Source: Sumerlaeia bacterium
Lineage (GTDB): Bacteria > Sumerlaeota > Sumerlaeia > SLMS01 > JAHLLQ01
Length of the DNA: 48,248 bases
NCBI GenBank assembly: GCA_040219255.1
Contig: JAVJSW010000075.1
Location: 1-48,248, forward strand
Direction of reading: 5' to 3'
Notes under the pieces: generated by a model
Database searches by the model: none
Seen by the model: only the letters and a program-made list of their open reading frames with translations
What the model was told of the DNA's origin: nothing
Shown here: positions 1 to 24,926 of the stretch, in pieces
How the letters are laid out: each line of letters begins with the position of its first letter
How positions within the stretch are numbered: the first letter of the stretch is position 1
Translations under genes and position numbers: made by a program

Positions 1-55
1 CCTGCCAGTGCATTCGCTTCGCGCCGGATGTGAAGCCGGGGGTCTTGTGTTCCAT
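1..55 (-). CDS. N-terminus of a putative IS66 accessory protein (TnpA-like), partial
   Basis: ATG at 55 with RBS; translates MEHKTPGFTSGAKRMHWQ…. Its position right inside the left IR is where IS66 orfA lies. Only 18 codons are visible. Confidence 0.45.
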   Translation of the reverse strand, partial: MEHKTPGFTSGAKRMHWQ

Positions 56-139
56 GACCTGCTCTCCGTGTATAAAATGAGGAGGCAGAATCGCACAGGA
101 CCCCGGCGATGGTCAAGATGGGGCTCGTAGGACGTTTAC
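1..139 (-). mobile_element. Left end of a probable IS66-family insertion sequence; continues beyond the window edge
   Basis: On the minus strand the element begins GTAAACGTCCTACGAGCCCC at 139, matching the GTAA(G/A)CG termini of IS66. The host protein's domain-like sequence stops exactly there (…LATLDTTLLLNG|). Inside are a TTGACC -35-like box (111-116) and a GGAGAG RBS (62-67) before an ATG at 55. Confidence 0.65.
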
Positions 140-1229
140 CGCCGTTGAGGAGCAGCGTCGTATCGAGCGTCGCGAGCAGGCCTCCGGCAGCTTCGCTGTC
201 GCCCGTCGCCAGGAGCGTCCAATCGCTGTCGCCGGGGCAGCCCTCAAAGCGGAACTCGAGGTGCCAGCGGTCGAGAATCGGGCTCTCCACAACGCCCAGA
301 ATGTCCGTCGGTTCGGTGATCGAGGCGCCTTCCGTGGGCGAGACGATTTCCACGCGCGGAGCTTCTCCGTCGTCGAGCCCGACGACGAGGCGCGCGACGG
401 CGCTGGCCCCAGTGAAGCCTTCGTTGTCCTCGGCGATGGCGCTGATTCGGTAAACGCCCTCGTCCAGGTTCCGCATGTCCACGCGGTAGGGGAACGTTTC
501 GTCGACGCCCACCAGCTCGCCATTCGCGTAGAACGAAACGCGGGCGATGAAACCATCGGCGTCGAGGGCGAGAGCCCGCACGTCGGCGGTCTCGCCGGGA
601 TTGAGGAACGTGCCGTCGGCCGGTGTTTTCAGCGTCACCGTGGGCGCCACGCGCACCGTGACGAGCACCACGTCGCTCGCCGCCAAATCGCCGTCGCTGG
701 CCATCAAACGCAGGGCGTAAATGCCGGGGGCGCTGAACTGGGCCTGGGTTTGCGGCGCGCTGGCGTCGGCGAACGTCACCGCGCCGGGGCCGGAAAGTTT
801 CTGCCACTCAAAGGTCAATGCCGCGCCCAGCGGCAGGCCGTCGTCGCTGGCTGAACCGTCGAGCGATGCGCTCGCCGGCATGGCCACGATGGCGTCCGGC
901 CCGGCGTCGACCACCGGCCCGACGTTGGGCCGGTGGTCGACCGTAAGCCTCATCGTCCCAGTTGTCCAGAGTTCGCCGTCGCTCGCCGCCAGGGCGACGC
1001 GATACTCGCCCGCGCCGGTCACCAGGGCGGGCGTTTCCAGATCCGCCGGTGCCTCGATGGCGAGGCTGCCCGGGCCGTCGAGAAGGCTCCAGCGCGTCGT
1101 CAGCGTCCCCGTCGCGGGCAGGCCATCGTCCGCCACCAAACCCGATAGCGTCAGCGATCCCGTCGTCTCCGTCGTCAGTTCCATCGTCCGCGACGCCGCG
1201 ACGCGCACCCGCGGCGCCCGGTTCCCGGC

Positions 1230-4200: not shown

Positions 4201-6000
4201 TGACTTCGGTTGCCAAAGTACACATCGCCCGTCGTGTCGAACGCCGCGCGTTCCAGATCGTCCATCAAATCGACCGGCACGCCGTCCAGATAGAGCCACG
4301 CCTCCTCCAGCGCCGCATCGTACGTCAGCGCCACATGATGCCATTGCCCAGCGATCAGTAAGTTGTCCGTCCTCAGCCTCGCGCCATCCTCCAGCCGGAC
4401 CTGCACGCCCACTGTTTGCCCCGCCGATTCATTCGTCTCGAAGCTTAACCCATAATCCAGGCCGACGTTGTCCTGACCCGCGTTCCATTCGAGCAAAACC
4501 TGGCCATCGCCCACCGTTGGCCGGACCCAGAAATCGACCGTGAAACCACGCGCCGCCTCCGCCAGATTCAGCTCCGGCGCCGCCGTCACCCGCGCGGCCG
4601 CCGACTCGCCATCGAAGGCGAACCCGCTCAGGACCACGCCCGACTCGAACGCGGCGCCGCCCACCAAAACCGCGTCGTGCCCCCCGGCCACATCCACCCC
4701 GGTGCCGTTCCCCGGCCACCACGCCACCAACGCCTCGTCGCGTGCGGCCTCGCACAGCGCATCCACCCGCATCTCGACCAGGTCGCTCGCGTAGGCCAAC
4801 CCGTCATTGGCTTCCAACTTCAGCAAATACAATCCCGGAGCATCGAACGTGGCCGATGTTTCCACCGCCTCCGCGTCGCCGAAAACAACGCTTCCCGGGC
4901 CGGAAACTTTCTCCCACCGCGCGCGAATCCCGCCCCCGTCAAAGGGCAGCCCATCGTCCGTCACTTCGCCGCGCAGAGCCAGCGGCTGGCCCGCCGAACC
5001 GCTGCAGTCCATGCCCGCGAACACCACCGGCGACCGGTTGTCCGGCGGGCATTTGCCGACGTCGCCGGAGCCATATATCGCGGCGACTTTCTCGGCGCTC
5101 AGCGCTTCGTTGTAGAAGCACACCTCATCGAGCATCCCCGGCAGAAAATACTGCGTCCCGAGGCGGCTGCCAAAATACAAATCCGAATCCGTCAGCGTCG
5201 CGACATTCTGTAAACCGGCCTTGAAATCCACCGGTGCTCCATCGGCGTACAGCCACGCCTCGCCCGTGCGCCGATCCAGCGTCACCGCGTGATGCGTCCA
5301 CATTCCCGGCGCCGCGCCGTTCGCCGTGCGCAGCTCGATTCCGCTGGCCAGCCGCACCCGGATTTCATTGCTGCCGCCTTCGCGCCGGATCGAAAGCCCC
5401 TCGCCGCCGGCCACCGTCGATTGGGCATCGTGCCATTCGATCACCACCGGATCGCTCGCGCTCGGCCCATCGTAACGCAGCCAGAACTCGATCGTGAATC
5501 CGTCCTCCGCCACGTCCAGATTGAACGCCCCGTGCTGATCCACCCGGGCGAAATCATCGATCCCGTCAAAGCGCAACCCGCGCGAAATCAGCCCCCGCTC
5601 GATCACCGCCCCGTTCGTCAAGTACGCGATCGTATTGCGGACGATGTCCTCGCCGCTGCCCTCGAAATCCCACCACGTGGCGATGCTCGCGGGCGTTTCC
5701 ACATAGCACGGCAGCGCCACCCGAACCGCCATTTCATCCTCGAACGTTTCCTCCGAATCGTCCGCCACCAGCCGCAGCCGGTAAATCCCCGGCTCGGCGA
5801 AGATCACCGTCGGCTCGGTCGAAGCCGCGTCGCTGAACTGCACCGCCTCCGGCATCGTCATCTCGTCCCACGCCACCGTCACGCCCGTTCCAAAGGGCAA
5901 CCCATCATCGGAAACCAGCGCCCGGAATGGGTATCCGGTCCCCGCTTGCGTCAGGTACGGATTCCCCTCGATCGTCGCCACCGGCCCCCGGTTCACCGGC
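1230..6000 (-). repeat. Five ~960-bp PKD-like + LamG (concanavalin A-like) module repeats
   Basis: xDDGLP recurs at ~5905, 4955, 3990, 3025 and 2065. WWxG(N/D)G-type starts, FDG, FT(V/I)(E/D)FW, W.HVA and GxLDE motifs recur. Each LamG is bracketed by Cys residues. Confidence 0.85.
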
Positions 6001-7779
6001 TCCAACTGCAGCACGATGTCGTCGCTTCGCACATCGCCGTCCCGGTCCGCCGTCAACCGCAGCACCCACCGCCCCCAATCCGAAAACCGCACCTCCGAAT
6101 GCAGCGCCTGCGGGTCGTCGAAAACCGCCTCCGCCTCCCCGTTCGGCCGCTCCACCACGGACCACTGTACCGGCAGGTCGTTCGTCTCGTAACCCGTATT
6201 GTGATAGAGCTTTCCGTACAACTGATGGGGCAGCGGCCACTCGTGCTCGCCGTCCGCCCCCGCATCCACCCGCCATTGCGGCGCCGCGCCGGGCGCCGCG
6301 TAGCCCTCCGTCCCCACCGTCACATCGTAAACCACCGGTGAAATCGCCCGGCTCGACGATTCGAAAACCGCCTTCATGAACAGATAACGCCCGGTCCCAT
6401 CTAGCCCCACGTTGCCGAAATCCACCTCGCGCAGGTCGTCCTCGACAAAGGCCTCCGGGTCATCGGTCGCCGCCGCATAGAAAGTCACATCGCCATCGTT
6501 GCAGACCTCCGCCGTCCAGCGCATCGGCCCCCAGGACGCCCCCTCGATCTCGCCATCGTACATCACCGACCAGAACGCATCGTAATTCCCCGTCGCGTCA
6601 CCCGACGACTGAAACAGAATATTCATTCCTGTCATGTCGCCAAAGTGATAAGCTCCAGCCCCATAACTCGTCGTCACCAGTTCAATCTCGCCCAGCGCCG
6701 TCTTACCATCGGCGCCGATGGGCCCCGCGTCCGGATCGATGCGAACCGCCCTCCCATCATATCCCGCCACCCAAACCTTGCCGTTCTTGTCCGTCGATAC
6801 CCCGCTCGACGAAACCGGCACAGGCAAGAAGCCCAGCAGTTCACCCTGCGAATCCAGTTTCATCACCTGATCTCTTGGCGGATAAGGCGCGATATAAACA
6901 TTGCCATGGAAATCGCAGGCCAAGACCTGAGGACCGTACTGGGTATAGTCCTTCTCCACCAAGACCTCGCCGTTGAGATCGTACTTATGAACGACTCTAC
7001 CGCTTCGCCAAACGCCACCTCGATTGTCGAGGGCCAGACAATACCCAAAATACAATTCGTCCCAATAAACGCCTTGCGGAGAATTTAGAGGGAAATCCGT
7101 GTTCCAGCGAAGCAACCCCCGCGTCGACCAAAGATAGCCATTGAACGTCATCAGTGCATGATATCCCGATGACGTGCCGACCGTGCCAGGACGAGCCACT
7201 TCCGTTCGAAGAATTTCCCCCGTCTCTCCATCCACCAACTTCCAGGTCCCCCGGTTGAATCCCCAACCGCTTGCCCAAACGTTGTTTTCCGGCGTCACCG
7301 CCAAAGCACGCGCCTTGCCTACCCCTATATCCACGTGATGAACGATCAACTCATCCTCCGCATCCATCGCCGTCTCGCCAACCCACGGCAACAGAACGCC
7401 AGCGCGAGGCGATGTATCCAAGACCCCGTTTCCATTCTTATCGATCCACCGGCCCGATTCCGGAGTTACAATATGTGTAATCGTATTTGTTTCCCGGTTG
7501 GCCACCCACACGCCACCGAAGCGATCGACTGCCGTACGGGACGGCCCCAGAGAAGCGCTCCGGCCCTGAGGTCCCGTATAATAACTTCCCCTCCCGCGCC
7601 CATCGTGAATGTCGTAGCGATGTATCGTGCCCCGCCTGGAGTTCGCCAGCCATACATTGTTGAAGTTCGAGTCGGATGCCGTTCCATCCAACATCAGTTG
7701 ATTCGGCTCGATCGGAGGCAAGCGATACCTCTGACCCTCATCGAAATCGCCCGACGTCGTAAAGACCCGGTTCCGCACA

Positions 7780-9480
7780 TAAGGGTTGATGACAAGGCGG
7801 AACGTTTGACTCTCCGACAAATCCACACCGCCATTCTCCATCCCATCATCGTCCCGCACCGCCACCGAGAACGTCACTTCTCCATAACGCTTCGCTTCCA
7901 GCACAAACGTCAGCGTCCCAGACGTATCGATCATTGGCTCATGCACAAAAAAGGACGTGTCGCTGACATCCGCGACAATATACGAATGAACCCGCTGACC
8001 CGCTTCATTTTCAACTCCGGGATCGAACGCAGCCCAGGCCTCAAACGTATGCGTCCGCGTCGTCGCGCCCTCGTCCACTTCCACCTCCGAAGCCATGAAA
8101 GAAGGCGCGTCATTCACCGCCAGTACCTCAAACATTACAACCGCGGGAGGTGAATCGGCCAATCCGTCGTTGGCCACGTAAATCACCTGATCGAAACCAT
8201 TGAAGTCCGCGTCTGGAATATATTCATAGTCCGCCCTACTTCCCACCAGTCGACCGTTCGCCGGTCCCTCGATAACATCAAATGTCAGTTCCGCTCCCTC
8301 GACGTCAAAACCCGAAAGTCGGAACGGGGCGGAATCATCTTCCAGCAGCGTAACCATGACATCATCAGCCACCGGAGGATCGTTGACCGCCATGATCTCG
8401 AACCAGACCGTACCGATATCACTCAAACCCTCCGGGTCGGTCACGCGATATGTCAACGAATCGGTTCCAAAAGCATCGCTGTAAGGCCAATAGATCAGCT
8501 CCGGCAATTCGCCCGACAGAACACCCAGGCTCGGAGAAGTCACAATTTCATAAAACAAGGAATCGCCATCGACATCTTCCCCGCGAAGCAGAAATGACGT
8601 CGATGTGTCCTCGTCCAGAGTGACGTATAAATCCTGGCTAACGGGACTGTCATTCACCGCGGTCACAAGAATTCGAATCTCAGCCTCCGGCGAAGTCAGA
8701 CCAGACGGATCCCGCGCCACGAATGAAAGGGAATCCTCTCCGAAAGAGTTCGCGTTCGGAACATAAGTGGACCCAACGCCGTCGCTCGCAAGCATACCGA
8801 ACCGCGGAGACTCCGTTATCAAAAAGTGGATCGAGTCCCCGTCCGGATCTTCTCCCGTCAGCGACAAAGAAAGAGACGTATCCTCCTCGGTCGACACCAC
8901 TTGCGGATACGCCACAGGCGGATCGTTGACCGGCAGTACAGTGATCAGGACCACCGCCTCCTCGCTATCGGTCGTACTGTCGGAAACCAATAACACAAAC
9001 GAATCCGGTCCGAAATAGTCCGGAAAAGGCGTGTACACATACACACCGGCCGAACCGCCAACTTCAGTTAATGTACCAAAGCCAGGAAATTCGATGATCG
9101 TGTAGCTCAGCACGTCCCCATCGATATCGTCAGCCAGCAGTTCCAGCAAATACGACTCGTCCTCCAATACCGTAATCTCCGCATCGTAGGCCCTGGGAGG
9201 ATCGTTGACGGGAATGACCGTAATCGATACGGTCCCGGTGTTACTACTCAGCTGTCCATCATTCGCCCGGAATGTGAACGCGTCGGTACCAAAAAAATCG
9301 GGAAAACCACGATACTCATAGAACGGCGCGTCTCCCGAAAGAGTACCGCTCGTCGGCTCGGAAACCACCTCGAAAGTCAACGGATCATCGTCCGGATCGT
9401 CCGCCAGCACTTGCAGCGAAATCGTCGTGTCCTCATCTCCCGAAGCGGACCAATCATAGGCCACTGGCGGCCGATTCGGA
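7780..9480 (-). repeat. Five tandem-95/Big_9 (cadherin-like Ig) repeats plus one related Ig module
   Basis: NRPPVA/VNDPPxA/VNDSP/VNDAP starts recur every ~270-280 bp, with ED, DxDGD and FGxDxF motifs. Confidence 0.8.
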
Positions 9481-9562
9481 ACCGGCGTCGGTGTCGGTGT
9501 CGGCGTTGGACTGTCCGTCGGTGTCGCCGTCGGAGTTGAAGTAGGCGTCGGAGTCGCCGTAC
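9481..9562 (-). repeat. Pro-Thr low-complexity linker (TATPTPTSTPTATPTDSPTPTPTPTPVP)
   Basis: Degenerate 6-bp tandem repeats (gtcggt/gtcggc). A second shorter PT linker lies at ~10400-10446. Confidence 0.85.
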
Positions 9563-9599
9563 CATCGCCCCCGTTCAAACTCGGGACGCAGGCCATCGT

Positions 9600-10340
9600 C
9601 GGGTGATGATTGAATTGCCCATAGCCCGTGACAGAAACCGCCACCATGGTGCCGTAGATCACCCCATTGTCGAAGGTCACATCGGCGCGCGGAGAAAACA
9701 CCGATCCCGGCACGCCCACCCCGTTGAGTTGTAGTTCCGTCGCGTCGGCAAAGTGAAAATCACCCGTTCGGCCACCACACCATTCGCCAGAGCAAAACCA
9801 AATTGCCGCATGCGCGCGCTAGCTTCGCCGGCGATGTTGACCAGGGCGCTCGAACCACTCGGAATGTTAATGCTAAACGTGTTCGCGTTCCACAAATCGC
9901 CACTCTGAACCACAAAAACATTCGTCTCCGCCTCCGTCCCCGCCAGTGTTATCTGACAAGTCGAACCGCCCCAGTAATGAACCGTCGTCGAACCGGTCGG
10001 CGCCAGGTCCCGCCAGGCATCCGACAGCGCCAGCAACCGGCTCTCCGCAGCCCAGAAATCGATTGGGCTCCCCTGTTCCACGGTCCCGCCAACATGGGTG
10101 TTCTGAGCGATCTGCACCGACTTGCTATAAACGATCGACCCGTTGTTCACGGAACCGTTCGAAAAATCCAGATGCCCCCCAACGATCAAATCGACCCGCT
10201 CCACACCCTCAAACGGAAGACTCGAACCCACCGAATAGCTCGCCAGCGCCGCGTCCCCGCCCACCGCCATCCGCCCCTCCGTATCCGTCCCGGTTTGCGA
10301 GATATCACCGAACAAGAACACGTTAAACCCGCTTGCCACA
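9600..10340 (-). other. Choice-of-anchor A domain spanning the frameshift
   Basis: FNVFLFGD…DTEGRMAVGG, LIVGG, SPIDF, ALVNIAG, then VIF[N/H]FADAT, GSVFSPRA and GQFNHHP: the typical motif order of this domain. Confidence 0.75.
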
Positions 10341-10459
10341 TCCAGCCCCTGCCCCACAACACACGGACCCAAATCCCCATCCCCCGGAAGCGGCGCCGCT
10401 GTCGGAGACGCCGTGGGTGAGGGCGTCGGAGTCGGCGTCGCCGTCACCTCGCCCGAAAA

Positions 10460-10900
10460 TGGCTCGCTGCCAAAAACTAATTGAGACCCCGCATAAACAG
10501 GTATATTGGATGTTGTCTGAAACGAAGTACTAAGTCCTTGGTACGCCGGATCGTTCGACCCATTCCACGCCTGCTGCCAACCCGATAGCCGCGGCCGCAA
10601 TTGCAGTTCACAACTCTGCCCCGGACTCAGCGACTGAATCCACTCGACTTGAATATAATAAACATCATCGTGCCAATGCGCCGGCGGCCCGATCGAAACC
10701 TGGCCGCACTGACTCCAAAACACATCCGTCACCACATTCTGCGCACCCAACCCAGCCGCAAACACCTCGGATAAATCAAAGAACAACCTTGCCGAAAACG
10801 GACCCGCCGTCGGGTAAGGCGAACCGTTGACAAGACGCAGTTTATACTGCGTTTCCTGCGGGCTTTGGAGCCAACCCTGCACAGCTGCCTCCAGCCGCAC
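10460..10900 (-). other. CBM3-like (CBM3c type) carbohydrate-binding module in the giant protein
   Basis: Motifs RLFFDLSE, VYYIQVEW, ELQLR, WNGSNDPAYQGL and NIPVYAGSQLVFGSEP resemble the CBM3 modules of GH9 cellulases; a Pro-Thr linker follows. Confidence 0.7.
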
Positions 10901-11331
10901 TCCCTGGGCGAAACACCGGTCGCTCAGGCCGACGAATACAGCGGCCGCGATCAAAACGAACAACGCCGCCACCCACCCGCGAAATGTTCCATTGATAGGA
11001 GATAAGCATCCCCCGGCGTTCGGCTGATTGAACATGGGATCGGTCGTCCAGGAATACCGCGAATCCCCTTCATCGGTCTCGTGAAGGACTTCGCGACGTG
11101 TAATAGCGAGCCGCGCAATACTGCACGCCCCAAACCCCAAGAACTCAGACCTTTGCCGAACCCTATAGAGTCATTGATTGTGTGTCACAAAAGTCTTCTC
11201 TCAACGACCCGCACCCCAACACAAGGGGAATTTACTTGAACCTGGGAAAATGTGAGCCACCTGCCCCGGTGTCGCTCCACCCTGCACTCGGGAATCCCTC
11301 CAATGACGGGAGACTGGCAAGTTGGAGGCAC

Positions 11332-12924: not shown

Positions 12925-13340
12925 ATGATCGAAAAGATAACGAACGTTGATTCGCAAGTTCCTCAAGCGGCTCGCCTTGCGAGGCGCCAACGCAATACGT
13001 TGAGAATCGTGCAATCGCAAGCGGCGGACTGAAAACATGCCAAGACATTGCCCACCCGCACGCAATAGACGACACTGATGCATCTCTGATTTTCATCGCT
13101 TTAGAGCACAAAGGAGGGGGACGGGAAGGGATTTGGAGCGACTTTTCCCTTGGAAGCGATAAAATGCTTGCGGCGTTACATTCGCAGTCTGTAACTAGTC
13201 AACGCCGTTTCCAATTGTCCGGCACGCCCGCTCCCGAAACTGCTCTCGCTCCAAACCGTTCCCGCTCCCCCCTTCTTTGTGACTGTAGCCCGGCTTGATC
13301 AGGATTACCCCACCCTGATTCACGCCGGGCGATTTCTTTT
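12925..13340 (+). ncRNA. Candidate large structured non-coding RNA of unrecognised family
   Basis: A ~35-bp imperfect helix pairs 13107-13141 with 13246-13281 and encloses inner stems. Several 5' hairpins, and a terminal hairpin 13288-13330 followed by TTTCTTTT. No credible ORF. Confidence 0.5.
13288..13340 (+). terminator. Terminator-like hairpin ending the candidate ncRNA
   Basis: Stems GCCCGGC/GCCGGGC and ATCAGG/CCTGAT followed by GATTTCTTTT. Confidence 0.5.
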
Positions 13341-13368
13341 ACTCTCGCAGCATCATCTGTACCAATTC

Positions 13369-13417
13369 AAAAGGCCCACCCGGCGCTCATGGCTGCGGGT
13401 GGGCCTTTCGATTTTTT
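13369..13417. terminator. Bidirectional rho-independent terminator downstream of groEL
   Basis: Perfect 13-bp stem AAAGGCCCACCCG/CGGGTGGGCCTTT with T-rich tails on both strands. Confidence 0.8.
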
Positions 13418-13479
13418 GGGGCGGCCTCGGCCGGATTGGCTTCGCCGCCCCCCTCAACTCATTGGCCGCGCGGCTGGAA

Positions 13480-15156
<1,677 letters not shown>

Positions 15157-15216
15157 TTACGTACGAAACTTGCGTTGAAAGAGAGGAGATGGGGGGAACA
15201 GCGGGGGACGCGGCGA

Positions 15217-15522
15217 TTAGCCGACCACGGCGAGGATTTCGTTCTCGCGCATGATCAGGTACTCGCTGCCTTCGAGCTTCACTTCGTTGCCGGCGTACTT
15301 GCCGAACAGAACCTCGTCGCCGACCTTCACGTCGAGCTTGTTGCGGTCGCCCCGGTCGTTGAAGGTGCCTTCGCCAACGGCGACGACGCGGCCGCGCTGC
15401 GGCTTCTCCTTCGCCGTGTCGGGAATGATGATCCCGCCAGAGGACTTGCTCTCCTCGGCGTCGAGGCGCTCGATGACCACGCGGTCATGCAGAGGCTTGA
15501 GCTTAATGGCTGTCGTGGACAT
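15217..15522 (-). CDS. groS: Co-chaperonin GroES (Cpn10)
   Basis: [36 protein letters not shown]; start moved to ATG 15522, which follows an AAGGAG RBS. Confidence 0.99.
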
Positions 15523-15618
15523 AGCTGTGTGTCTCCTTGGTTTTCTTGCGTAACGTTCAGATGCGGCCCACGGCCCAAATGGGGAGGGACGCCTTTCGTT
15601 TTGTCGAAGCAGCAAGAA

Positions 15619-15635
15619 GGCAAAGCTGGTGCCAG
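15619..15635 (-). promoter_or_regulatory. Sigma-54 (-24/-12) promoter upstream of groES
   Basis: CTGGCAC-CAGCT-TTGCC matches TGGCAC-N5-TTGC with exact spacing. An AT-rich TGTAA…TTACA segment lies at 15660-15678 and a palindromic TGTCGC-CTT-GATACA at 15711-15725 (possible activator site). Confidence 0.65.
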
Positions 15636-16112
15636 CGCCCGAACCGATGCTTACGCCACTGTAAAAACTCGACTTACACCAATCTCCAATGGCCGCCTCC
15701 AGGCGTGGCGTGTCGCCTTGATACAAACCGGGACCCGCCCGGTTGGGATTGTGTCATGGCGAACGCGGTGGCGTCGCGCAGCGATGCAGAGGCTGATTCC
15801 CCCGGAGGCGCAAAGCGTCGTGAATACCGATCATCAGGAAAGATCGTGGGCGGAACGACTCAGCCGGCCCGCTCTCTTGTGAATCCAACTCGAAAAACAC
15901 CTCAGCTTTCTCCGGCCATCCATCAAAAGTTCTAACGGCTGCCACCCATTAGTTCAGGCTTCCACGCGCTCCCGACCCTCGAGTTTTAATAGCTTCCATG
16001 CAAAACCCTTCGTTCTCTTTGCCTGAGTAACGTAGAATCGAGGGCCCGCCGCTTTTCTTGGGTTCGTCCTTGCGGTGGGACGCTTTTTGCGCCACCGTAT
16101 TCCGACGATACT

Positions 16113-19100
16113 GTGGACGTGGCCAGGGACGCCTCCATGACCCCCTTGCACTCCGTCACTCCCCCGGCTTCGGGATGCCATCGAACTTTGTCTTCACAAG
16201 ACTTGGCCCCAACCAATCACGGGAATGAACTCGCCCTGCGAATTAACGCCGAACTCGACCCCTGCGCCGTGATCGAGCGCATCGGCTATCGCGTGGACCG
16301 CATGCGTGTCCTGGGCACCATGATCCGCACCCCCTGCCCCATCCACCACGACGATACCCCCGGCACTCTCATCATCACGCCGGGCCGCAACATCTTCAAG
16401 TGTATGGCCAAGACCTGCCCGGCCCATCGCGGCGGCAACCTGGTTGACCTCTGGGGCCTTCACGTCGCCAAGAGCGGCGTGGACGCCGCCATGGACCTGG
16501 CCCGCAACCTCAAGCTCCCCTTCGCCAGCGCGGATATCAACACCCTGCCCCGCGAGGTCGAGCAGGCCCTGGCCCAGCGCAGCGTCACCGCCGCCGAGGA
16601 ACTCGTGGATCACGCCCGCGTCCTGCTCCCCCAGGCCTGGCAGGTCGCCTTCTCCGAAGGCCGGGTCGCCGAAGCTCGCCAGAAACCCCTCGAAGCGGCC
16701 GCCTCCTACCGCGAAGCGGCGCGCCGGGCCGCCGAACTGCCCGACCGGCCCCAGGCCGAAAAGCTCTTGCGAGAGGAAGTTCTTCGGCTTCTGCCTGAAG
16801 ACGAGGACGCGATGCTCGCCCTGGCGGACTTGCTGGCCCTTCGCGATGACCGCCAGGGCGAAACGGAAGTCCTCGACCGCCTCGTCGCCCGCAAGGCCGA
16901 GCAGGAGGAGTTCGGCACCGATCTGCTGATGCTGCTCGACCGCCTGACCGAATCCCGCCATGGCGAGGAAACGCTGCTGATGTACCGGGCCCGGGCGTTG
17001 GCGGCGTCGGGACAGACATCAAAGGCGGGCGAGTGCTTCCTCCAACTGGCGGAAATGCGCCGCGCCCACGGCGCCTATCGCGACGCCCTGGACGCCGTCG
17101 AGCAGGCCCGCGCGGTCCGCGATCAGTTTCTCGACGCCTGGCGCGCCGCCGCCGACCTCCATGAACTCATGGGGCTCGACGAGGACGCCGTGTCCGATTG
17201 GGAAATGATTGCGGAAATGGCCCGCAACCGCCAGGATCGGGAAACCCGCGAAGAAGCCCTCAAAGAATTGATTCGCCGCCAGCCCGCCCGCTGGAGCCAC
17301 CATCTGGAACTGGGCGAGTTCCACGCCGAAGGCGCCAATCCTTCGCGCGCCCGCGAGGTCCTCTGCGACGCCTGGCGTTCGGCCATCGGCAAGAAAGCCC
17401 GCGACGACGCCCGCCGTCTTCTCGCCGCCCTCTGCCGCGTCGAGGGTGGACCCGCCGCCGCTCATGGCCTCATGGAAGAAGGCGATCACTCCCGCGCGGC
17501 CTTCAACGCCCTCCTCGACGTCGCCGAGGAAGCCTTCGCCGAAGGCCATGGCGCCACCGGCCTGGCGGTCTGCGAGGAAGCCTCCAAGACCCTCGATGCG
17601 CAAGCCTCGGCCCACGAACGCATCGGCACCCTGCTCCTGGAAAACGACCATGGCGCCATCGGGAAACCCCAGATGCTGCGGGCGGCGGTGCTCTATCTCG
17701 AGCACTCCCAACCGGGCGACGCCCGCCGCTGCGCCCAGGCCGTCATCGATAAGGAACCAGCCCATCGCGAAGCCCTCCGCCTGAAAATCCGCGCCCTCCT
17801 GGGTCTGGGCGAAACCGCCGACGCCATCAGTGTCCTCGAGGACCTGACCGCCACTTACCCCGCCTGGGACAAGAGCACGGCCTCCGAACGCGAAGAGCTG
17901 GAGGGCATCTGGCGCGAACTGCTCGAACTGGTGCCCGATCACCTGGAAGCGATGCGCGGCCTCGCGCGCGCCGCGGCCAAAGACCCCCAGCGAATCTCCG
18001 AAGCTCTGAGCCGATGGCGCATCGTCGCCGGCAAGCTCAGCCACCGCGAGCGGCGCGAGGAAAAAGTGCAAGCTCTCGAAGCCATCCTCCAACTCGCCCC
18101 GGACTCCAAAGACACCCTCCAGGACATGGCCCGCCTGCTGATGGAACTCGACCGCCCCATCGAGGCCGCGGCCCATTACAGCGCCCTCGGCGCTATCGCC
18201 CTGCGCGACGAGCGCCTGCGCGCCGCCCTTACCTATTACGAGGAAGCGTCGCGCCTGAACCCCGCCAACATCAAGGCGGTCCGGGCCGCCATGGGTGCCG
18301 CCACTGTCATCGGCGACCCGGATTGCATCTCGCGCCTCGCACGCCGTCTCGCCACCCTTCACCTCGAACGCGGCGAAGGCGATCGCGCGGAGATTGTCTT
18401 ACGCAACGCCATCGAAGCCTGCGAGGACGACCTCAGCCTCCCCCTGCGCCTCTCCGAACTGCTCGCCAAACGGGGAGAACGCCCCGAAGCGGAGGCTCTC
18501 CGCTGGCGCCTCGCACGCAAAAAACTCGCCCTCGACCGCCCCAACGAAGCCGCCGACGACGCCCTGGCCGCTCTCGAACTGAGCGTCATGGACGGCCGCA
18601 TCGATGACGGCCGCGCCGAATTCCGCCGCCTCCTCAGCGATTTCCCCGACCCCCTCGCCCTCCGCCGCCAGGCCGCCGCCCTCTTCAGCGAACAGAACCT
18701 CCCCGAACTCGCCCATCGCGAACTGATGTCCGCCACCAAAGGCTCCCTCGAATCCAACCGCCTCGACGAAGCCCTCGAATGCGCCCGCGAACTGATCGAC
18801 GCTGCCCCCGGCCTCCCCGAATCCCACGGCCTCTGCGCCGAAGTCCTGCAAGCCCGCGGCGAACTGGAAGACGCCTCCGCCGAATGGATGAAGAAGGCCG
18901 ACCTCATTGAGGAAATCGATTCCCTCGAGGCCGCCCGCGCCCTCGAAAACGCCATCAAGTGTCAGCCCGACGACATCTTCCTCCACGAGCGCCTCATCGC
19001 CATCCACGAAGCCGCCGGCCGCACCTCCGACATGGTCGCCGGCCTGCGCGGCCTCGCCGAAATGCAGCGCAACCGCGGCGAATTCTCCGCCGCCGCCCTC

Positions 19101-20756
19101 ACCCTCAACCGCATCCTCTCCCTCTCTCCCGACGATACCGGCACCCGCGCCGACTACATCGCCCTGCGCCTTCAAGCCCACGAGGAAGATGTCTTGCAGG
19201 AAGACTACCTCTTCATGGCCCGCCTGCGATCCAACCAGGGCCGCCACGATGAAGCCATGAAGTTCCTGCGCAAGACCCTCGCCCTGGACCACGCCAACGA
19301 AGAAGCCCGCCGTCAGTTGGTCGGTTGCCTGACCCAACTCAACCGCCTCGAGGAAGCCCGCCGCTTCGCCTACGGCTGCGCCCGCGAAGACCTCCGCGAA
19401 GAACGCCCCAGCAGCGCCCTCAACATCCTCACCTCGGTCGCCGCCCACGCCGCCGAGGAAGCCGACTACCACCGGCTCCGCGCCCGCGCCCATGAACGCC
19501 TCAATGAAATGCACGAAGCCGCATGGCATCTGCGTGAGGGCGCCGCCCTCTGCGCCCGGTCCGGCGACGCCAAGGGCCAGGCCGACCTCCTCCTCTACGC
19601 CCTGCGCCTCGATCCCTCTCAGACCATGCTGCACCGCGAAGCCATCGACCTCCTGAGCACCCTCGAACGCTCCGACGACGCCATCCAGCAGCAAATCCAG
19701 CTCGCCTTCGCCTTTGCCGACAAAGGCCAAGTCGAACGCGCCGAGCAGGAACTTCGGGCCATGGTGGAGAAAACCCCACAGAACTTCGCCGCCTGGGAAG
19801 CCCTCTTCGACATCCACATGCGCCGCGGCACAGAGAAAGACTTGATCGCCGACTACCGCACTGTGGCCCGGCTGCGGGATCGCTCGGGCAACAAGGACAA
19901 AGCCCGCCACTACTACGGCCGCGTCCGCGACCTCGCGCCCTACGACATGGAATCCCGCCGCCGTTTCGTGGACCTGCACCTGGAAATGGGCGGCGAGGAA
20001 GTCGAACTCGTCGACGATTATCTCGCCCTCGCCGACGCCCTCATCGCCGCCGGACGCGTCGACGACGGCGTCGCTCTCTACGGCAAAGTCATGTCTCTGG
20101 ACCCGCAGAACAGCCGGGCTCGCTATGGCCTCACCGAAACCAGCAGCCCCCTCTCCCCGCCCCGGAAACTTATCGCCGACGACGAAGTGGACCCCGAAGC
20201 CGCCGAAACCGACGTCCGGCCTGCCCATCGCCCCACCGCCCTCTTCGACAGCACCCAATCGGTCCCCCGTCTCTTGCCGCCTCCCGCGCCCACACCCGCA
20301 CGATCGTCCCCTCCCCAATCATCCCCTCCCCCGCCGCCCCCGGGCTTTGGCGCATCCGACTTCCTGGCCAATGAGGTGGAAAGCATGGAACGCGACGAAC
20401 AGTCCGATACCCTCAGAAGCGTCATCCGCAACTATCGCGACATCATCGCCATCAATCCCCAAAACGCCCAGGCCCGCGTCAAGCTCGCCGATCTCTTGGT
20501 CCAAACCGGCCAGCAGGACGACGCCAACGAGGAACTGACCTTCGCCGCCGACGCCTTCTTTCGCAAAGGCGACATGAACCAGTGCGTCGACATCTGCGAG
20601 CGCGTCCTCGACGCTTCGCCCGCCAACCAGAAGGTCCGCCTCCTCCTCAAACAAGCCCTCAACAAACGCGACGCCATGAAAGCTCTGGAATCCGCCATCC
20701 TTTTCTCCGATAAGCTCGAACACCGCGACGAAGGCGGCCCCCGTCCTCACCGCTGA
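16113..20756 (+). CDS. Large TPR-repeat protein with N-terminal DnaG-type CHC2 zinc finger
   Basis: N-terminal CPIH…FKCMAKTC…GGNLVDL…AAMDLARNLKL, followed by many TPR-like helical repeats and a Pro-rich linker before a final TPR block. True start uncertain (16113/16138/16203). Confidence 0.85.
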   Translation: MDVARDASMTPLHSVTPPASGCHRTLSSQDLAPTNHGNELALRINAELDPCAVIERIGYRVDRMRVLGTMIRTPCPIHHDDTPGTLIITPGRNIFKCMAKTCPAHRGGNLVDLWGLHVAKSGVDAAMDLARNLKLPFASADINTLPREVEQALAQRSVTAAEELVDHARVLLPQAWQVAFSEGRVAEARQKPLEAAASYREAARRAAELPDRPQAEKLLREEVLRLLPEDEDAMLALADLLALRDDRQGETEVLDRLVARKAEQEEFGTDLLMLLDRLTESRHGEETLLMYRARALAASGQTSKAGECFLQLAEMRRAHGAYRDALDAVEQARAVRDQFLDAWRAAADLHELMGLDEDAVSDWEMIAEMARNRQDRETREEALKELIRRQPARWSHHLELGEFHAEGANPSRAREVLCDAWRSAIGKKARDDARRLLAALCRVEGGPAAAHGLMEEGDHSRAAFNALLDVAEEAFAEGHGATGLAVCEEASKTLDAQASAHERIGTLLLENDHGAIGKPQMLRAAVLYLEHSQPGDARRCAQAVIDKEPAHREALRLKIRALLGLGETADAISVLEDLTATYPAWDKSTASEREELEGIWRELLELVPDHLEAMRGLARAAAKDPQRISEALSRWRIVAGKLSHRERREEKVQALEAILQLAPDSKDTLQDMARLLMELDRPIEAAAHYSALGAIALRDERLRAALTYYEEASRLNPANIKAVRAAMGAATVIGDPDCISRLARRLATLHLERGEGDRAEIVLRNAIEACEDDLSLPLRLSELLAKRGERPEAEALRWRLARKKLALDRPNEAADDALAALELSVMDGRIDDGRAEFRRLLSDFPDPLALRRQAAALFSEQNLPELAHRELMSATKGSLESNRLDEALECARELIDAAPGLPESHGLCAEVLQARGELEDASAEWMKKADLIEEIDSLEAARALENAIKCQPDDIFLHERLIAIHEAAGRTSDMVAGLRGLAEMQRNRGEFSAAALTLNRILSLSPDDTGTRADYIALRLQAHEEDVLQEDYLFMARLRSNQGRHDEAMKFLRKTLALDHANEEARRQLVGCLTQLNRLEEARRFAYGCAREDLREERPSSALNILTSVAAHAAEEADYHRLRARAHERLNEMHEAAWHLREGAALCARSGDAKGQADLLLYALRLDPSQTMLHREAIDLLSTLERSDDAIQQQIQLAFAFADKGQVERAEQELRAMVEKTPQNFAAWEALFDIHMRRGTEKDLIADYRTVARLRDRSGNKDKARHYYGRVRDLAPYDMESRRRFVDLHLEMGGEEVELVDDYLALADALIAAGRVDDGVALYGKVMSLDPQNSRARYGLTETSSPLSPPRKLIADDEVDPEAAETDVRPAHRPTALFDSTQSVPRLLPPPAPTPARSSPPQSSPPPPPPGFGASDFLANEVESMERDEQSDTLRSVIRNYRDIIAINPQNAQARVKLADLLVQTGQQDDANEELTFAADAFFRKGDMNQCVDICERVLDASPANQKVRLLLKQALNKRDAMKALESAILFSDKLEHRDEGGPRPHR

Positions 20757-20788: not shown

Positions 20789-22462
20789 ATGTTGGAAGCC
20801 AACACGCGCGTGTTGCTCGACCGCTCCGTTCTGCGGGTCGATGGGCATCCGTTCTTCACCCTCGCCGCCCGACTGTACCTCACACCCCTCGACGCCATCG
20901 CCTCCGCCGTCGCGGACCTCGCGCAAGCCGGCTTTACCGCCGTCATGTCGCCCCCCGCCAGCCCCGGAAACCTTCCCGTCCTCGAAACACTCTTCGACGA
21001 GGCGGAGAGCCGCGGCCTCATGGTGATCCTCGCCGGCGAAGCCCGCCTGCCCGATGCCGGGCACTTCCTCGCCGAGAACTTTCGTCATCGCCCCGGCCTT
21101 CACTCCTATTGTCTCCCCGTCACGGAAATGCCCCCCGCCGGCTCCGCCGACGAAGCCTTCGCCCGATTCCAACACGAGCGCGACCGCATCCGACGCCTCG
21201 ACCTGCACCATCCCGTCTGGACTCCCTTCCGCACCGATATGGCGGCCGAGCGATGGATGGGCACCAACGACTTCCTCAGCATCCCCCACCCCGTTGGCGG
21301 CCCTATCCTCCCCGAACTCAAACCCCTCGAACTGCTCGCCCGCCTCAGAGAGACCGCCGCCTCCTCCCACGCCCCCCGGCCCCTTTTCTGCCATGCTCTC
21401 GAATGCGGCGCCTCCAACGCCGCCCGCCTCGCCGGCATCTTCAACGACGACATGGGCGTCTCCCTCGCCCCCGCCCGCGCCGAAAGCTGGTTCCCCTACA
21501 TGGCCCGCCTCGGTTCCATGGCTCGCCGCGACTTCTTCCTCCCCGATCCCGATCTCCTCCTCCTCAAAGCCACCGACCTGCTCGGCGCCGGAGCCCGCGG
21601 CATCGTCCTCCACTTCTACGAATACCTCCTCGGCCAGCCACCCATCACCGGCCGCGACCGCTTCTGCGCCATGGCGGTCCTGGCCCAGAAAATCGCCGCA
21701 CTGGATCGCTTTTTCTCCGAAGGCCGTCCCCCCGCCCCGGAACTCCAATTCGCCGTCGACCCCGGCCATCCCCGCGTCACCGCACAGGCCCTCCAACACG
21801 GCCAGGACATCCTCATCATCCTTCGCCGCACCGGTCCCGGCGAAGACTACTGGATCGACTCCAGCCCCCTCCCACCGCTCCATCTCCGCGTCGAGATCGC
21901 CCTGCCCCACGAAGACCTCCGGGCCTGGCGCGCCGATTTTCCCTCGGGCCGCGAATTGCAGGTCAGCAAGGCCCTCCGCGGCGCCATTGAAATCCTCCTG
22001 CCCGAGTTCCCCCTCACCGCCATGGTACTCCTCTCCTCCTCCCGCGAGCGCCCCCGCGAAACCATCCGGGCCCTCGGCGAACGCCTCCCCGCCGCCGCCC
22101 GCTACGCCGTCGAAGGAAGCCGCGTCCGCCTCGAAAAAGCTCAAGTCATTGAAAGAGAACTCGAAGAATACTTGGGCATGCTCAACACCCCGTCGGGCTT
22201 GCTCGAGCAAGCCTGGCAGGCCCAGCGCCAGGCCGAAAGCGCCCTCGAAGCCGATCGCCCCGCCGTCGCTTTCGCCTGCGCGGAAGAAGCCGCCACCGCC
22301 CTGCGACGCCTGATCGACGCCCAGATGACCACCGCACTCGGCGTCTCCGGGTCCTGGGGCGACACCTTACTCGATCTGCTCAAACGCAGCTATTGCACCC
22401 TTCCGCGCTTCTACCGCGAACTTCGCAAAGGCGCCATGGAAGCCTCGGAAGAGTACACCTAA
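20789..22462 (+). CDS. Hypothetical protein with degenerate glycoside-hydrolase-like (TIM barrel) N-terminal domain
   Basis: LRVDGHPFF…LAQAGFTAV, RIRRLDLHHPVW and GARGIVLHFY resemble clan GH-A-like barrels; GAGG RBS; 32 bp after the TPR gene. Confidence 0.6.
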   Translation: MLEANTRVLLDRSVLRVDGHPFFTLAARLYLTPLDAIASAVADLAQAGFTAVMSPPASPGNLPVLETLFDEAESRGLMVILAGEARLPDAGHFLAENFRHRPGLHSYCLPVTEMPPAGSADEAFARFQHERDRIRRLDLHHPVWTPFRTDMAAERWMGTNDFLSIPHPVGGPILPELKPLELLARLRETAASSHAPRPLFCHALECGASNAARLAGIFNDDMGVSLAPARAESWFPYMARLGSMARRDFFLPDPDLLLLKATDLLGAGARGIVLHFYEYLLGQPPITGRDRFCAMAVLAQKIAALDRFFSEGRPPAPELQFAVDPGHPRVTAQALQHGQDILIILRRTGPGEDYWIDSSPLPPLHLRVEIALPHEDLRAWRADFPSGRELQVSKALRGAIEILLPEFPLTAMVLLSSSRERPRETIRALGERLPAAARYAVEGSRVRLEKAQVIERELEEYLGMLNTPSGLLEQAWQAQRQAESALEADRPAVAFACAEEAATALRRLIDAQMTTALGVSGSWGDTLLDLLKRSYCTLPRFYRELRKGAMEASEEYT

Positions 22463-22531: not shown

Positions 22532-23647
22532 CTACATGCTCCCGCCAAGGTAGCCCGATTGCTCCTTGCGCGTTCCCGTGGTGATGCCCTCCACCATCAG
22601 CCGCAGTTCCTCCGGGCTCGACGCGTAGGCCAGCGCCGTCTCGTAATCCACATACTCCTCGCGAATGAGCTGATAGAGCGACTGGTTGAAACTCTGCATC
22701 CCCCAGTGCCCGCCCTCCTCGATCACCGGGAACAGTTCGAGCGTTTTGCCTTCGTTCAGAAGCTTCTTCACCAGCGGCGTGCTGATCAGAATCTCCACCG
22801 CCGGAATGCGGCCCGTACCCTTCTTGAGCGGCAACAGCCGCTGGCTGATGACGCCCTTCAGGCCCAAGGACAACTCCATGCGGATCTGATTGTGCAGATA
22901 CGCCGGGAAGAAGTTGATGATCCGCTCCACCGTCTGCACCGCGTCCGTGGTGTGCAGAGTCGACAGCACCAGGTGACCCGTTTCCGCGGCGGCCACGGCC
23001 GTGTTCACCGTTTCCACGTCGCGCATTTCACCGATCAGGATCACGTCCGGGGCCTGACGCAGGACATGCTTCAGAGCGTCGGCGAAACTGTTCGTGTCGA
23101 AGCCCACCTCGCGCTGACTGACGATGGCGTTCTTGTCGTCGTGCAGGAATTCGATCGGATCCTCCACGGTCACGATGTGGCATTTGCGCGTGTCGTTGAT
23201 CTGATTGATCATGGCGGCCAGAGTCGTGCTCTTGCCGGAACCCGTCATGCCAGTGACCAGCACCAGACCCCGCCGGGCCTGGCACAGTTTCGGCACCGCT
23301 TCGGGCAAATGCAGGTCTTTGAAGCTGAAGTTGGGCCGCGTGATGTGGCGGAACACCATCGCCACCGAACCGCGCTGGCGGAAGAGATTGACGCGAAAGC
23401 GCCCCACACCGGGCAAACCGATGGCGAGGTCCATTTCCGGGATCTTCTCGAACGCCTCGATCTGCTCCTCGGTCATCATGCTGTAAGCGATCACCTGCAC
23501 GTCGTCGACGGTCAGGTCGCTGTAATCGAGGTCGCGAATCTCGCCGTCCACCCGGACATGCGGGGAAACCCCCGCCTTCACGAAAAGGTCCGATGCGCCA
23601 CGCTCCACCATCTCTTGGAGCATGTCATCGAGTTGAATCATCGCCAT
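22532..23647 (-). CDS. pilT: Type IV pilus retraction ATPase, PilT/PilU family
   Basis: ASDL, GRFRVN, Walker A GMTGSGKST, EDPIE, LRQAPDVILIGEMRD, His box GHLVLSTLHT, GMQSFNQSL. The AIRNLIRE box is diverged (LVKKLLNE), so it may be a PilU-like paralogue. Confidence 0.9.
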   Translation of the reverse strand: MAMIQLDDMLQEMVERGASDLFVKAGVSPHVRVDGEIRDLDYSDLTVDDVQVIAYSMMTEEQIEAFEKIPEMDLAIGLPGVGRFRVNLFRQRGSVAMVFRHITRPNFSFKDLHLPEAVPKLCQARRGLVLVTGMTGSGKSTTLAAMINQINDTRKCHIVTVEDPIEFLHDDKNAIVSQREVGFDTNSFADALKHVLRQAPDVILIGEMRDVETVNTAVAAAETGHLVLSTLHTTDAVQTVERIINFFPAYLHNQIRMELSLGLKGVISQRLLPLKKGTGRIPAVEILISTPLVKKLLNEGKTLELFPVIEEGGHWGMQSFNQSLYQLIREEYVDYETALAYASSPEELRLMVEGITTGTRKEQSGYLGGSM

Positions 23648-23784: not shown

Positions 23785-24714
23785 TCAACCCTCCGCGGTT
23801 CGAGCCTCTGAAGCGGGCGAAGCCGCCACCGCGTCTCCGCTGTCGTACTGGGCCGAATCGCCGCTCTCGCTCTGACGATCGTGCGAGACGTTCTCTTCCG
23901 TCCCGTCCTCGTTGAGCTTCATCACCTCCGCCCGCGAGATGTCGTCTCGGCTGCCGCCCTCGCGGCGCCACAGGTAAATATAGCCTCGAATCTTGTAACC
24001 CTTCGCGTCGGTGTGAGGCGACTGGTAAGTGTTCGGCTTCACGAATCCCTGATAATGCGAGTTGATAACCGCGTCGTAGCCCTCCAGCACCTGCTTGGCG
24101 TAGAGCTTCGGGAAGGTGTACTCGTGATACCGGCGCGTCACCGTCGAAACGAAATCGGCCACCTGCAGCCCGCAGGAATTCACCGGGCTCTGGACCATCG
24201 GCGTGGCAACCAGGGGACTGTGCCGGCCTTGGGCGCCAAACAGATTCTCCACCTGCAGGCTCGCCAGGATCGCCGCCTCGTCGCTGCGCCCCGGAGGAAT
24301 GATCAACGATCCCACCTCGTCGCGCTCGCGCAGGTACTGAACCACCGGCCGCATCAGATAGTTGTACGAAAGCGGCAGCAGCCACCGCGGATGAGCCGGT
24401 TTGTCGGTCGTTTCCTTGTCGATGACGACCAGGAAAAACTTCGCCTCCAGCCCCGCCACGATACGCTCCAGACCCTTGCAGAAGGCCATCGTCCAACTTT
24501 TCTCCGCGTTGCGCGGATGAAGCAGATCGTTCGCGTCCAAAATCGTCTTATCAGGCGTATAGTTGTTTTTATGGAAGGACTTCAGCAAGCCGTTGACGCG
24601 CAACTGCATCGGCTTCCACTTGGTGTCCGGAATCGCCACGCCCGCCAGAGTCCAGAAACGGCCCGAGACGCCCGCGACGGGTTTGCCAGATTGTTGAAAA
24701 TAAATAAAATGCAT
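23785..24714 (-). CDS. DUF3800-like (RNase H-fold) protein with altered acidic motif
   Basis: N-terminal MHFIYFQQSG…FWTLAGVAI and C-terminal SCGLQVADFVS match the DUF3800 pattern (hhYhDESG … LQhAD); acidic tail. Start set at ATG 24714. Confidence 0.7.
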   Translation of the reverse strand: MHFIYFQQSGKPVAGVSGRFWTLAGVAIPDTKWKPMQLRVNGLLKSFHKNNYTPDKTILDANDLLHPRNAEKSWTMAFCKGLERIVAGLEAKFFLVVIDKETTDKPAHPRWLLPLSYNYLMRPVVQYLRERDEVGSLIIPPGRSDEAAILASLQVENLFGAQGRHSPLVATPMVQSPVNSCGLQVADFVSTVTRRYHEYTFPKLYAKQVLEGYDAVINSHYQGFVKPNTYQSPHTDAKGYKIRGYIYLWRREGGSRDDISRAEVMKLNEDGTEENVSHDRQSESGDSAQYDSGDAVAASPASEARTAEG

Positions 24715-24926
24715 CGGTACACAATTGCCTCGCGAGTGGTATCCCACCTGATGGTGCATCGCGGCAAGGGTCTGGGTTTTTCACGTCTATCAAGCAAAAA
24801 CTGCCTTTTAGGACAGCCACAGCTTGAATTGATGGTCTTGCCACGATAAAACCGCCCACGCAAGAGTCATTTCCGCATGGCGTTCCCTTTTCCAGCGGAA
24901 CGCCTCCAAACCCGGAAAGTTTTTCC

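Follow-up and report, generated by a model that had tools for sequence, protein, structure and literature searches.

The window analysed here is a stretch of 48,248 nucleotides, contig JAVJSW010000075.1 of a Sumerlaeia bacterium genome assembly (GCA_040219255.1), read on the forward strand. It carries an open reading frame (ORF) for a protein with a DnaG-type (CHC2) zinc-binding domain (ZBD) at its N-terminus, followed by a long solenoid of tetratricopeptide repeats (TPRs) and referred to below as the ZBD-TPR protein. We found that this protein is a non-enzymatic repeat protein, probably a scaffold, and not a primase. Its ZBD is a genuine, divergent member of the DnaG zinc-binding fold, present without the catalytic partner. 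The architecture represents an undescribed protein family that is spread throughout the phylum Sumerlaeota.

The Pfam model PF01807 (Zn_ribbon_DnaG, CHC2) scored the full-length protein at 12.7 bits (E 0.11) and the isolated zinc domain at 18.3 bits (E 0.0021), so that the curated cut-off of 24.9 bits was not reached. The model is also missing from the Pfam lists precomputed for five proteins of the family, the ZBD-TPR protein included; standard annotation is thus blind to the ZBD of this scaffold family. PF01807 was the sole family consistently matched by 11 orthologous domains (8 of them at E≤1, the best at 6.5e-5). We accepted the identity of the domain despite the sub-cut-off Pfam score because of the matches to PDB sequences, the modelled structure and the invariant zinc ligands. 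When amino acids (aa) 1–156 were compared with PDB sequences by phmmer, DnaG from Aquifex (2au3) was matched at E 9.5e-6 with the whole ribbon aligned. A profile built from the 11 orthologous ZBDs matched 2au3 at E 4.3e-6 and 1d0q at E 0.14, and nothing else related among the PDB sequences.

An AlphaFold2 model of the ZBD, calculated from an alignment of 35 sequences, reached a mean pLDDT (predicted local distance difference test) of 90.0 and a pTM (predicted template modelling score) of 0.82. In the model, two helices at the N-terminus precede a zinc ribbon of four strands, and a helical part forms the C-terminal end. Foldseek comparison of the model with the PDB returned 2au3 (E 3.5e-4, probability 1.00) and 1d0q (E 1.3e-2, probability 1.00), and nothing besides these two below E ~1. 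VIA-align against 48,161 representative chains again ranked 2au3 at the top (Z 9.6, 105 residues aligned), with 1d0q second (Z 9.2, 100 of 102 residues aligned, root mean square deviation 3.1). Third and fourth came two more primase-type zinc domains, those of the T4 primase in 8dvf (Z 6.2) and of human Twinkle (7t8b, Z 6.0), and the next match was at Z 4.1.

The four predicted zinc ligands, C75, H78, C97 and C102, were the same in all 35 sequences of the family alignment, which come from several architectural classes. The Cys-His-Cys-Cys order is that of DnaG, as are the fold, the sequence homology (E ~5e-6), a conserved K/R at the third position ahead of the first Cys and a GG...L motif past the last one. 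The domain differs from that of DnaG in its second knuckle, where Cx4C takes the place of CxxC, in its sub-cut-off score and in its more basic core. By a strict pattern Cx4C was found in 132 of 149 proteins; among the 17 exceptions, 13 proved by eye to be Cx4C with an extra Cys, and the remaining four were CxxC, among them the two DnaGs of this genome. The net charge of the 57-residue ribbon core is +4 in the ZBD-TPR protein and on average +4.9 in 53 giant relatives, whereas the two DnaGs of the genome have +1 and −3.

What follows the ZBD is unlike DnaG, as a TPR solenoid stands in the place of the TOPRIM/RNA polymerase and helicase-binding domains. The Pfam scan placed TPR families above their cut-offs over aa ~196–1520, including TPR_19 (133.6 bits, E 3e-39), TPR_14 (96.5 bits, E 1.9e-28), TPR_16 (61.4 bits, E 1.1e-16), TPR_2 (56.1 bits) and further TPR families. 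The TPR models of the NCBIfam scan were all sub-threshold, and the 14 families matched there at E≤1 did not include SgmX. No match to TOPRIM, DNAG_N, dnaG (TIGR01391) or other catalytic families, to an NTPase or to an effector domain was obtained in the Pfam and NCBIfam scans. LysM and SPOR were without a match in the Pfam scan, and the hydropathy scan predicted no membrane segment. The last TPR block, at aa ~1432–1520 as judged from the translation and the C-terminal alignment, is set apart from the solenoid by a Pro-rich linker. An earlier note, made by a model from the DNA sequence alone, had described this build (a DnaG-type zinc domain, no TOPRIM or polymerase domain, a TPR solenoid, a Pro-rich linker and a last TPR block), and the description held in every part, with the Pfam score of the zinc domain below its cut-off. 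The note further knew of no characterised protein with this architecture; in agreement, no published description of the CHC2-TPR architecture or of these Sumerlaeota proteins was found in the literature searched, subscription journals being outside its coverage. The primase ZBD is known almost solely from primases and primase-helicases, and here it heads non-catalytic scaffolds throughout a phylum.

To describe the distribution of the family we relied on exhaustive and genome searches, as the word-indexed homologue searches were of little reach: with aa 1–400 and aa 35–150 as queries they returned the ZBD-TPR protein itself only, and with the ZBD profile as query and greater lengths the yield was five proteins. 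A HMMER search of 1.84 billion representative proteins gave 190 matches at E≤1e-3. The related loci in species-representative genomes (n=47) comprised 35 from Candidatus Sumerlaeota (formerly BRC1), seven from records labelled 'bacterium' or metagenome and five with other labels. At the genome level the ZBD profile matched 72 of 75 Sumerlaeota genomes at E≤1e-10, and a query of aa 1–196 found one to five matches per genome in 41 of 41 relatives of the class.

Based on length and C-terminal module we distinguished four classes. The giants have ~1.75–3.3 thousand residues, and many of them carry at their end the C-terminal block of the ZBD-TPR protein. The ZBD-TPR-DnaA ATPase fusions have ~1.35–2.15 thousand residues, the shorter ZBD-TPR proteins ~430–570 and the ZBD-only proteins ~100–220, some of which may be fragments. 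This genome carries one of each: the giant on contig C75, the DnaA fusion on contig C44, the ~500-aa protein on contig C8 and the ZBD-only protein on contig C68. A quick maximum-likelihood tree was calculated from 149 ZBDs over 100 columns; many of its forks are unresolved and its root is arbitrary. The ZBDs of the giants formed a single clade of 66 rows (Shimodaira-Hasegawa approximate likelihood ratio test, SH-aLRT, 85) and those of the ~500-aa class a separate one (support 98), while the ZBDs of the DnaA fusions were closest to the canonical DnaG ZBDs of the genome. The ZBD-TPR protein itself was located inside a clade of 13 giants with 95% support. Its branch length of 0.61 was the longest in that clade, compared to 0.2–0.4 for its sisters.

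BLASTP comparison with ten fetched orthologous giants identified the ZBD-TPR protein as an orthologue, in shortened form, of these giants. Its first ~300 aa aligned to the N-termini of all ten giants; the earlier note's start assignment depended on homologues possessing this N-terminal domain, and 10 of 10 do. The last ~750–1100 aa (~950 aa overall) were colinear with the C-terminal ends of eight of the ten, proteins of 1845–3123 aa (E 1e-43 to 1e-113). The other two, giants of ~2600 aa from the family-level group f7, stop before the Pro linker and are without the C-terminal head. The solenoid middle is ~900–1600 aa shorter here than in the orthologues; in the comparison with a 3109-aa orthologue, ~300 aa of the ZBD-TPR protein replace ~1900 aa. 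It is the shortest complete giant among the examined relatives in f1, the group of this genome.

Per-position identity computed against the ten orthologues was unevenly distributed along the protein. It was 0.41–0.45 in the ZBD (aa 61–120), rose to another peak of 0.38–0.45 at aa 1291–1350, and was highest in the C-terminal head (0.39–0.55 at aa 1441–1530). Most of the solenoid was at 0.12–0.34, mostly ~0.2, and the Pro-rich linker at 0.10–0.12. In the C-terminal alignment the terminal motif NKRDA[FM]KALESAILF was nearly invariant. From the conservation profile and the terminal motif we concluded that the protein has a conserved head at either end, and that a rod whose length varies and a flexible tether connect the two. 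The shortened copy thereby marks the minimal conserved parts, namely the ZBD, the last ~250 aa of the solenoid and the C-terminal head.

A protein that is the shortest complete giant among its f1 relatives, has the longest branch in its clade and has lost both of the upstream partners seen elsewhere (see below) might also be a decaying remnant of a giant scaffold with little function left. We consider this very improbable. The frame of 1547 codons is uninterrupted, the four zinc ligands and both conserved heads are kept, and forms of 1.8–2.1 thousand residues are also found in other lineages.

The gene order around the giants pointed to a possible partner. Directly upstream of the ten orthologous giants we found a SPOR domain protein in three cases (groups f3 and f7), a CarboxypepD_reg/Big_5 repeat protein in five (all f1), an ABC-2 permease in one and nothing recognisable in one. 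In three loci (L014–L016) the gap between the SPOR gene and the giant was 34–80 bp. To count this linkage more widely, the coordinates of the SPOR-protein C-terminal domain were compared with those of the ZBD matches. The SPOR gene was immediately upstream of a ZBD-TPR gene and on the same strand in 17 of 30 non-f1 genomes, belonging to nine family-level groups (G011, 12, 13, 17, 18, 19, 21, 22, 24, 25, 26, 27, 29, 32, 36, 38 and 40). Among the 13 unlinked non-f1 genomes, two were without a match to the domain, one was cut by a contig end, and in ten the two genes were on different contigs or far apart. We concluded that the linkage of the SPOR gene with the giant is conserved, and probably operonic, in much of the phylum, and that it has been broken up in f1.

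The SPOR protein of this genome is encoded on contig C60. It has an N-terminal signal or transmembrane (TM) segment, a LamG-like region, two SPOR domains and a second TM segment at ~aa 614–644 of the frame, followed by a Pro/Ala-rich tail and a C-terminal domain of ~190 aa. This order suggests a bitopic protein with periplasmic, presumably peptidoglycan-binding SPOR domains, a tail predicted to be disordered and cytoplasmic, and a conserved C-terminal domain. The latter was present in 39 of 41 relatives and is the most conserved part of the protein, with 41–69% identity and 32 invariant columns in 24 sequences. Complex predictions between the N- plus C-terminus of the giant and this domain gave 0.00 in two runs without control pairs and count neither for nor against an interaction.

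From the observed domain identities, conservation, distribution and synteny we infer what the giants may bind, where they may be located and which process they may serve. Our proposal is that the giant is a cytoplasmic two-headed scaffold, whose zinc head would address DNA or a replisome component and which would couple the cell wall or the division site to that target; we regard the proposal as evenly poised between right and wrong. Head 1 would be a primase-derived zinc ribbon (C75/H78/C97/C102) that lost its link to the polymerase and turned basic, and it would act as a targeting module for DNA, single-stranded or structured, or for a component of the replisome. The TPR superhelix of variable length would offer a platform for client proteins, and the flexible Pro-rich tether would join the solenoid to head 2. 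Head 2, the short conserved TPR block with the KRDAxKALESAILF end, is probably a second docking site. Together, the SPOR protein and the giant would form a link, comparable to landmark hubs of the FimV/HubP type, from the wall or division site to the cytoplasmic target that the zinc finger marks. The scaffold role, which the earlier note had also suggested, is reasonable because an enzymatic domain is missing and two conserved ends surround a middle of variable length. Coupling to the wall or division site appears to be the most likely role, because the SPOR gene adjoins the orthologue in other Sumerlaeota lineages.

Several points weigh against this proposal. In none of the 11 f1 genomes, this one included, is the SPOR gene adjacent to the giant, so that the neighbourhood in this genome lends the partnership no support. 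The f7 giants retain the SPOR neighbour and yet are without the Pro linker and the C-terminal head, hence head 2 cannot be a universal docking site for the SPOR protein. Related genomes are not independent samples, so that the synteny counts overstate the evidence. The long branch (0.61 versus 0.2–0.4) and the much shorter solenoid of the ZBD-TPR protein mean that the role of this copy may have drifted. A further point concerns the zinc head. The earlier note had taken it as known that a CHC2 ZBD by itself binds single-stranded DNA (ssDNA), and this premise was not borne out: according to a study on the primase of B. subtilis, the isolated DnaG ZBD binds no ssDNA, and DNA binding required the ZBD and the RNA polymerase domain together (PMC5429622). 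DNA binding by the zinc head of the giants can for this reason only be inferred; it is plausible, aided as it is by the basic ribbon core and by the paralogue fused to DnaA. What this gene adds to the picture is the shortest complete form observed in the clade, the absence of the SPOR linkage from f1, and a C-terminal head that is dispensable where the SPOR neighbour is kept.

The same study makes another reading worth considering, in which the zinc ribbon docks a protein, the primase or another replisome protein, instead of DNA, and the ZBD-TPR proteins tether or regulate the replisome. In that work the DnaG ZBD packs on the RNA polymerase domain via hydrophobic contacts and salt bridges, and does so in trans as well (PMC5429622). 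The genome has two complete-looking canonical DnaG genes (C77:165357-166115 and C78:29005-29742), each with DNAG_N and a strong ZBD of its own of ~120 bits, and a canonical DnaA on contig C37. As the canonical DnaA and both DnaGs are present, the ZBD-TPR family does not replace missing replication parts. We also considered that the ZBD might be supplied in trans to a ZBD-less DnaG, and rejected this since both DnaGs carry strong ZBDs. Protein docking would further agree with the sister class that carries a DnaA ATPase and adjoins polA. In the paralogue on contig C44 the ZBD passes the PF01807 cut-off with 33.3–37.6 bits (33–38 bits among the DnaA fusions, the ZBDs nearest to DnaG in the tree), and the ATPase was matched by Bac_DnaA at 197 bits and by TIGR00362 at 301.8 bits, under the cut-off of 343.9. 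The DnaA C-terminal DNA-binding domain is not among the domains listed for this paralogue, and one of the fusions is publicly named 'DnaA/Hda family protein' only. We consider the ZBD-TPR module to be tied to DNA replication, given its fusion with a DnaA ATPase in the sister class and the position of the fused gene beside polA. The fusion resembles the giant in its N-terminal Cx4C ZBD followed by TPRs and in its phylum-wide distribution, and differs from it by the DnaA domain III ATPase at its end, the ZBD score above the Pfam cut-off and the lack of the Pro linker and the C-terminal head. However, no replisome gene was found beside the giant in the 11 loci examined, and the ZBD core is more basic than that of DnaG, which fits a nucleic acid or an acidic ligand. 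We regard docking to a replisome protein as somewhat unlikely, and keep the two-headed scaffold with a DNA- or replisome-directed zinc head as the preferred proposal.

Pilus ATPase genes are found near two of the family members in this genome, and the ZBD-TPR protein could accordingly regulate the ATPases of type IV pili or act as their adaptor, like SgmX, a TPR protein that activates these pili in Myxococcus. A PilT/PilU gene (TIGR01420, 457 bits) lies 1.8 kb downstream of the ZBD-TPR gene and is kept in three of ten loci. The ~500-aa paralogue on contig C8, kept in nine of nine fetched relatives' loci with 31–63% identity, is followed by two PilT/PilU genes, of which one encodes an ATPase with an N-terminal extension of ~145 aa; the first PilT-family gene follows the paralogue in four of the nine relatives' loci. 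This paralogue also matched the SgmX model weakly (E 1e-8), with 34 bits where the cut-off is 1800. On the other hand, the PilT gene in the window is convergent and therefore not co-transcribed with the ZBD-TPR gene, and the PilT linkage is limited to f1, with none near the giants of other families in the fetched loci. The 5.3-Mb genome has an unusually large set of 18 matches to T2SSE-family (PilB/PilT/GspE-like) ATPases, which makes the proximity of a PilT gene less surprising. We judge a role as pilus ATPase adaptor to be quite improbable.

The earlier note had drawn an analogy to SgmX, which does not extend to membership, since the ZBD-TPR protein gave no match to the SgmX model (NCBIfam NF052243, cut-off 1800 bits). 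The two are alike as large cytoplasmic all-TPR proteins with pilus ATPase genes in the neighbourhood; in the case of the ZBD-TPR protein, the PilT link is weak and restricted to one clade. SgmX is not known to have a zinc finger. FimV/HubP proteins combine a periplasmic domain that binds peptidoglycan with a TM segment, a long cytoplasmic part that is disordered, and TPR modules that serve as a hub. The likeness to the Sumerlaeota proteins is one of logic only, which would be split over the SPOR-anchored protein and the giant, with PilT genes nearby. Unlike FimV/HubP, the ZBD-TPR protein lacks both a membrane segment and a wall-binding domain; the wall binder, encoded on contig C60, contains SPOR instead of LysM, FimV/HubP are not known to have a zinc finger, and the SPOR and giant genes are unlinked in this genome. 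The ZBD-TPR protein is a member of neither the SgmX nor the FimV/HubP family.

The idea that the zinc finger recognises phage DNA, also raised in the earlier note, would make the protein an anti-phage or foreign-DNA sensor with a TPR array as in STAND/Avs systems. TPR arrays are common as sensors, and a very weak match to GapS6b was obtained (E 0.024, 12.4 bits, the cut-off being 850). Nevertheless, no PADLOC family was matched at E≤1e-3 by the ZBD-TPR protein, its three paralogues, the downstream gene or the SPOR protein, and an NTPase or effector domain is lacking. The family is near-universal in the phylum, and the gene has housekeeping surroundings (groESL, PBP2, moeA). We find a defence role extremely unlikely.

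Should the zinc head of the preferred scaffold bind to DNA or to the replisome, the family would reveal how replication is connected with envelope and pili in an uncultured phylum, and it would offer biochemists a naturally isolated ZBD whose own activity can be tested. A bolder version, which we consider unlikely, is that the primase zinc finger serves Sumerlaeota as an 'address label' of general use for chromosome or replication fork, put on TPR scaffolds whose outputs differ, namely a DnaA ATPase, partners among the pilus ATPases and a SPOR protein anchored in the wall. The giant would then physically tether replicating DNA to the peptidoglycan wall or the division site. If true, this would be a chromosome-envelope coupling system without a counterpart in model bacteria.

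Table. Positions of the ZBD-TPR gene, its parts, its neighbours in the window and related genes on other contigs of the same genome
Feature	Location	Strand	Remarks
ZBD-TPR ORF	16113..20756	+	1547 aa, GTG start, uninterrupted frame
DnaG-type CHC2 ZBD	16227..16517	+	aa ~39-135; sequence, structure and ligand evidence
Zinc ligand C75	16335-16337	+	invariant
Zinc ligand H78	16344-16346	+	invariant
Zinc ligand C97	16401-16403	+	invariant
Zinc ligand C102	16416-16418	+	invariant
TPR solenoid	16560..20141	+	aa ~150-1343; Pfam TPR matches
Pro/Ser-rich linker	20142..20357	+	aa ~1344-1415; poorly conserved; read from translation and alignment
C-terminal head	20358..20753	+	acidic stretch, 3-4 TPRs, terminal motif NKRDA[FM]KALESAILF
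groEL	13480-15138	-	upstream of the ZBD-TPR gene
groES (Cpn10)	15217-15726	-	divergent from the ZBD-TPR gene
557-aa gene	20789..22462	+	starts 33 bp past the ZBD-TPR stop
PilT/PilU-family type IVa pilus ATPase	22532..23647	-	TIGR01420, 457 bits; convergent with the operon
324-aa protein	23785-24759	-	adjoins the PilT gene; PBP2 next
SPOR protein	contig C60, L090:6385-9339	+	984 aa; SPOR 27.1 bits as whole protein
DnaA-fusion paralogue	contig C44, L075:5742-9230	-	1162 aa: ZBD, TPRs, DnaA domain III ATPase
~500-aa ZBD-TPR paralogue	contig C8, L076:5251-9447, including pilus ATPase genes	+	two PilT/PilU genes after it
ZBD-only paralogue	contig C68, L077:5426-6082	-	no recognisable second domain

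In the public gene call the ZBD-TPR ORF starts with the TTG at 16203, giving a protein of 1517 aa. Sequence homology to the relatives begins at ~aa 37–43, so both the GTG and the TTG start include the zinc domain. A GC-rich hairpin at 16065-16082 (+), followed by CTTTTTG, is present ~30 bp 5' of the GTG. It could be terminator-like or a leader structure; hairpin sites of this kind were not more numerous in the region than in shuffled sequences. A scan between 15600 and 23800 revealed no sigma-70-like promoter, no CIRCE site was found within three mismatches of the consensus, and the window gave no match to Rfam families.

Upstream of the ZBD-TPR gene, groES and groEL hold the place that is occupied in the relatives by the gene for the SPOR protein or the CarboxypepD_reg/Big_5 protein. 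An ORF of 867 aa at 13279-15882 (+) was considered as an upstream partner gene and rejected, being the antisense shadow of groEL and groES. The 557-aa protein encoded downstream matched no Pfam, NCBIfam or PADLOC family. Homologues were detected in 21 of 41 relatives and solely within the order (f1 8/10, f2 10/11, f4 2/2); comparison of coordinates showed that the gene adjoins the giant in all eight f1 genomes that have it and not in f2 or f4. The protein has a beta/alpha pattern, a beta-sandwich and a C-terminal helical bundle, and its AlphaFold2 model was poor (pLDDT 55.6). A GH42-like TIM barrel suggested by Atlas neighbours at 0.86–0.87, under 0.9, is only a lead. The 324-aa protein next to the PilT gene was likewise without a match in Pfam, NCBIfam and PADLOC, and is 60–66% identical in four relatives' loci. 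Towards the other end of the window a giant ORF at 3-9719 (-), adhesin-like with Laminin_G_3, Big_9, cadherin-like and PKD repeats, exceeds 3239 aa and continues past the window edge. It is preceded by an ORF of 487 aa at 9677-11140 (-) with an ice-binding-like adhesive domain (pAdhesive_15).

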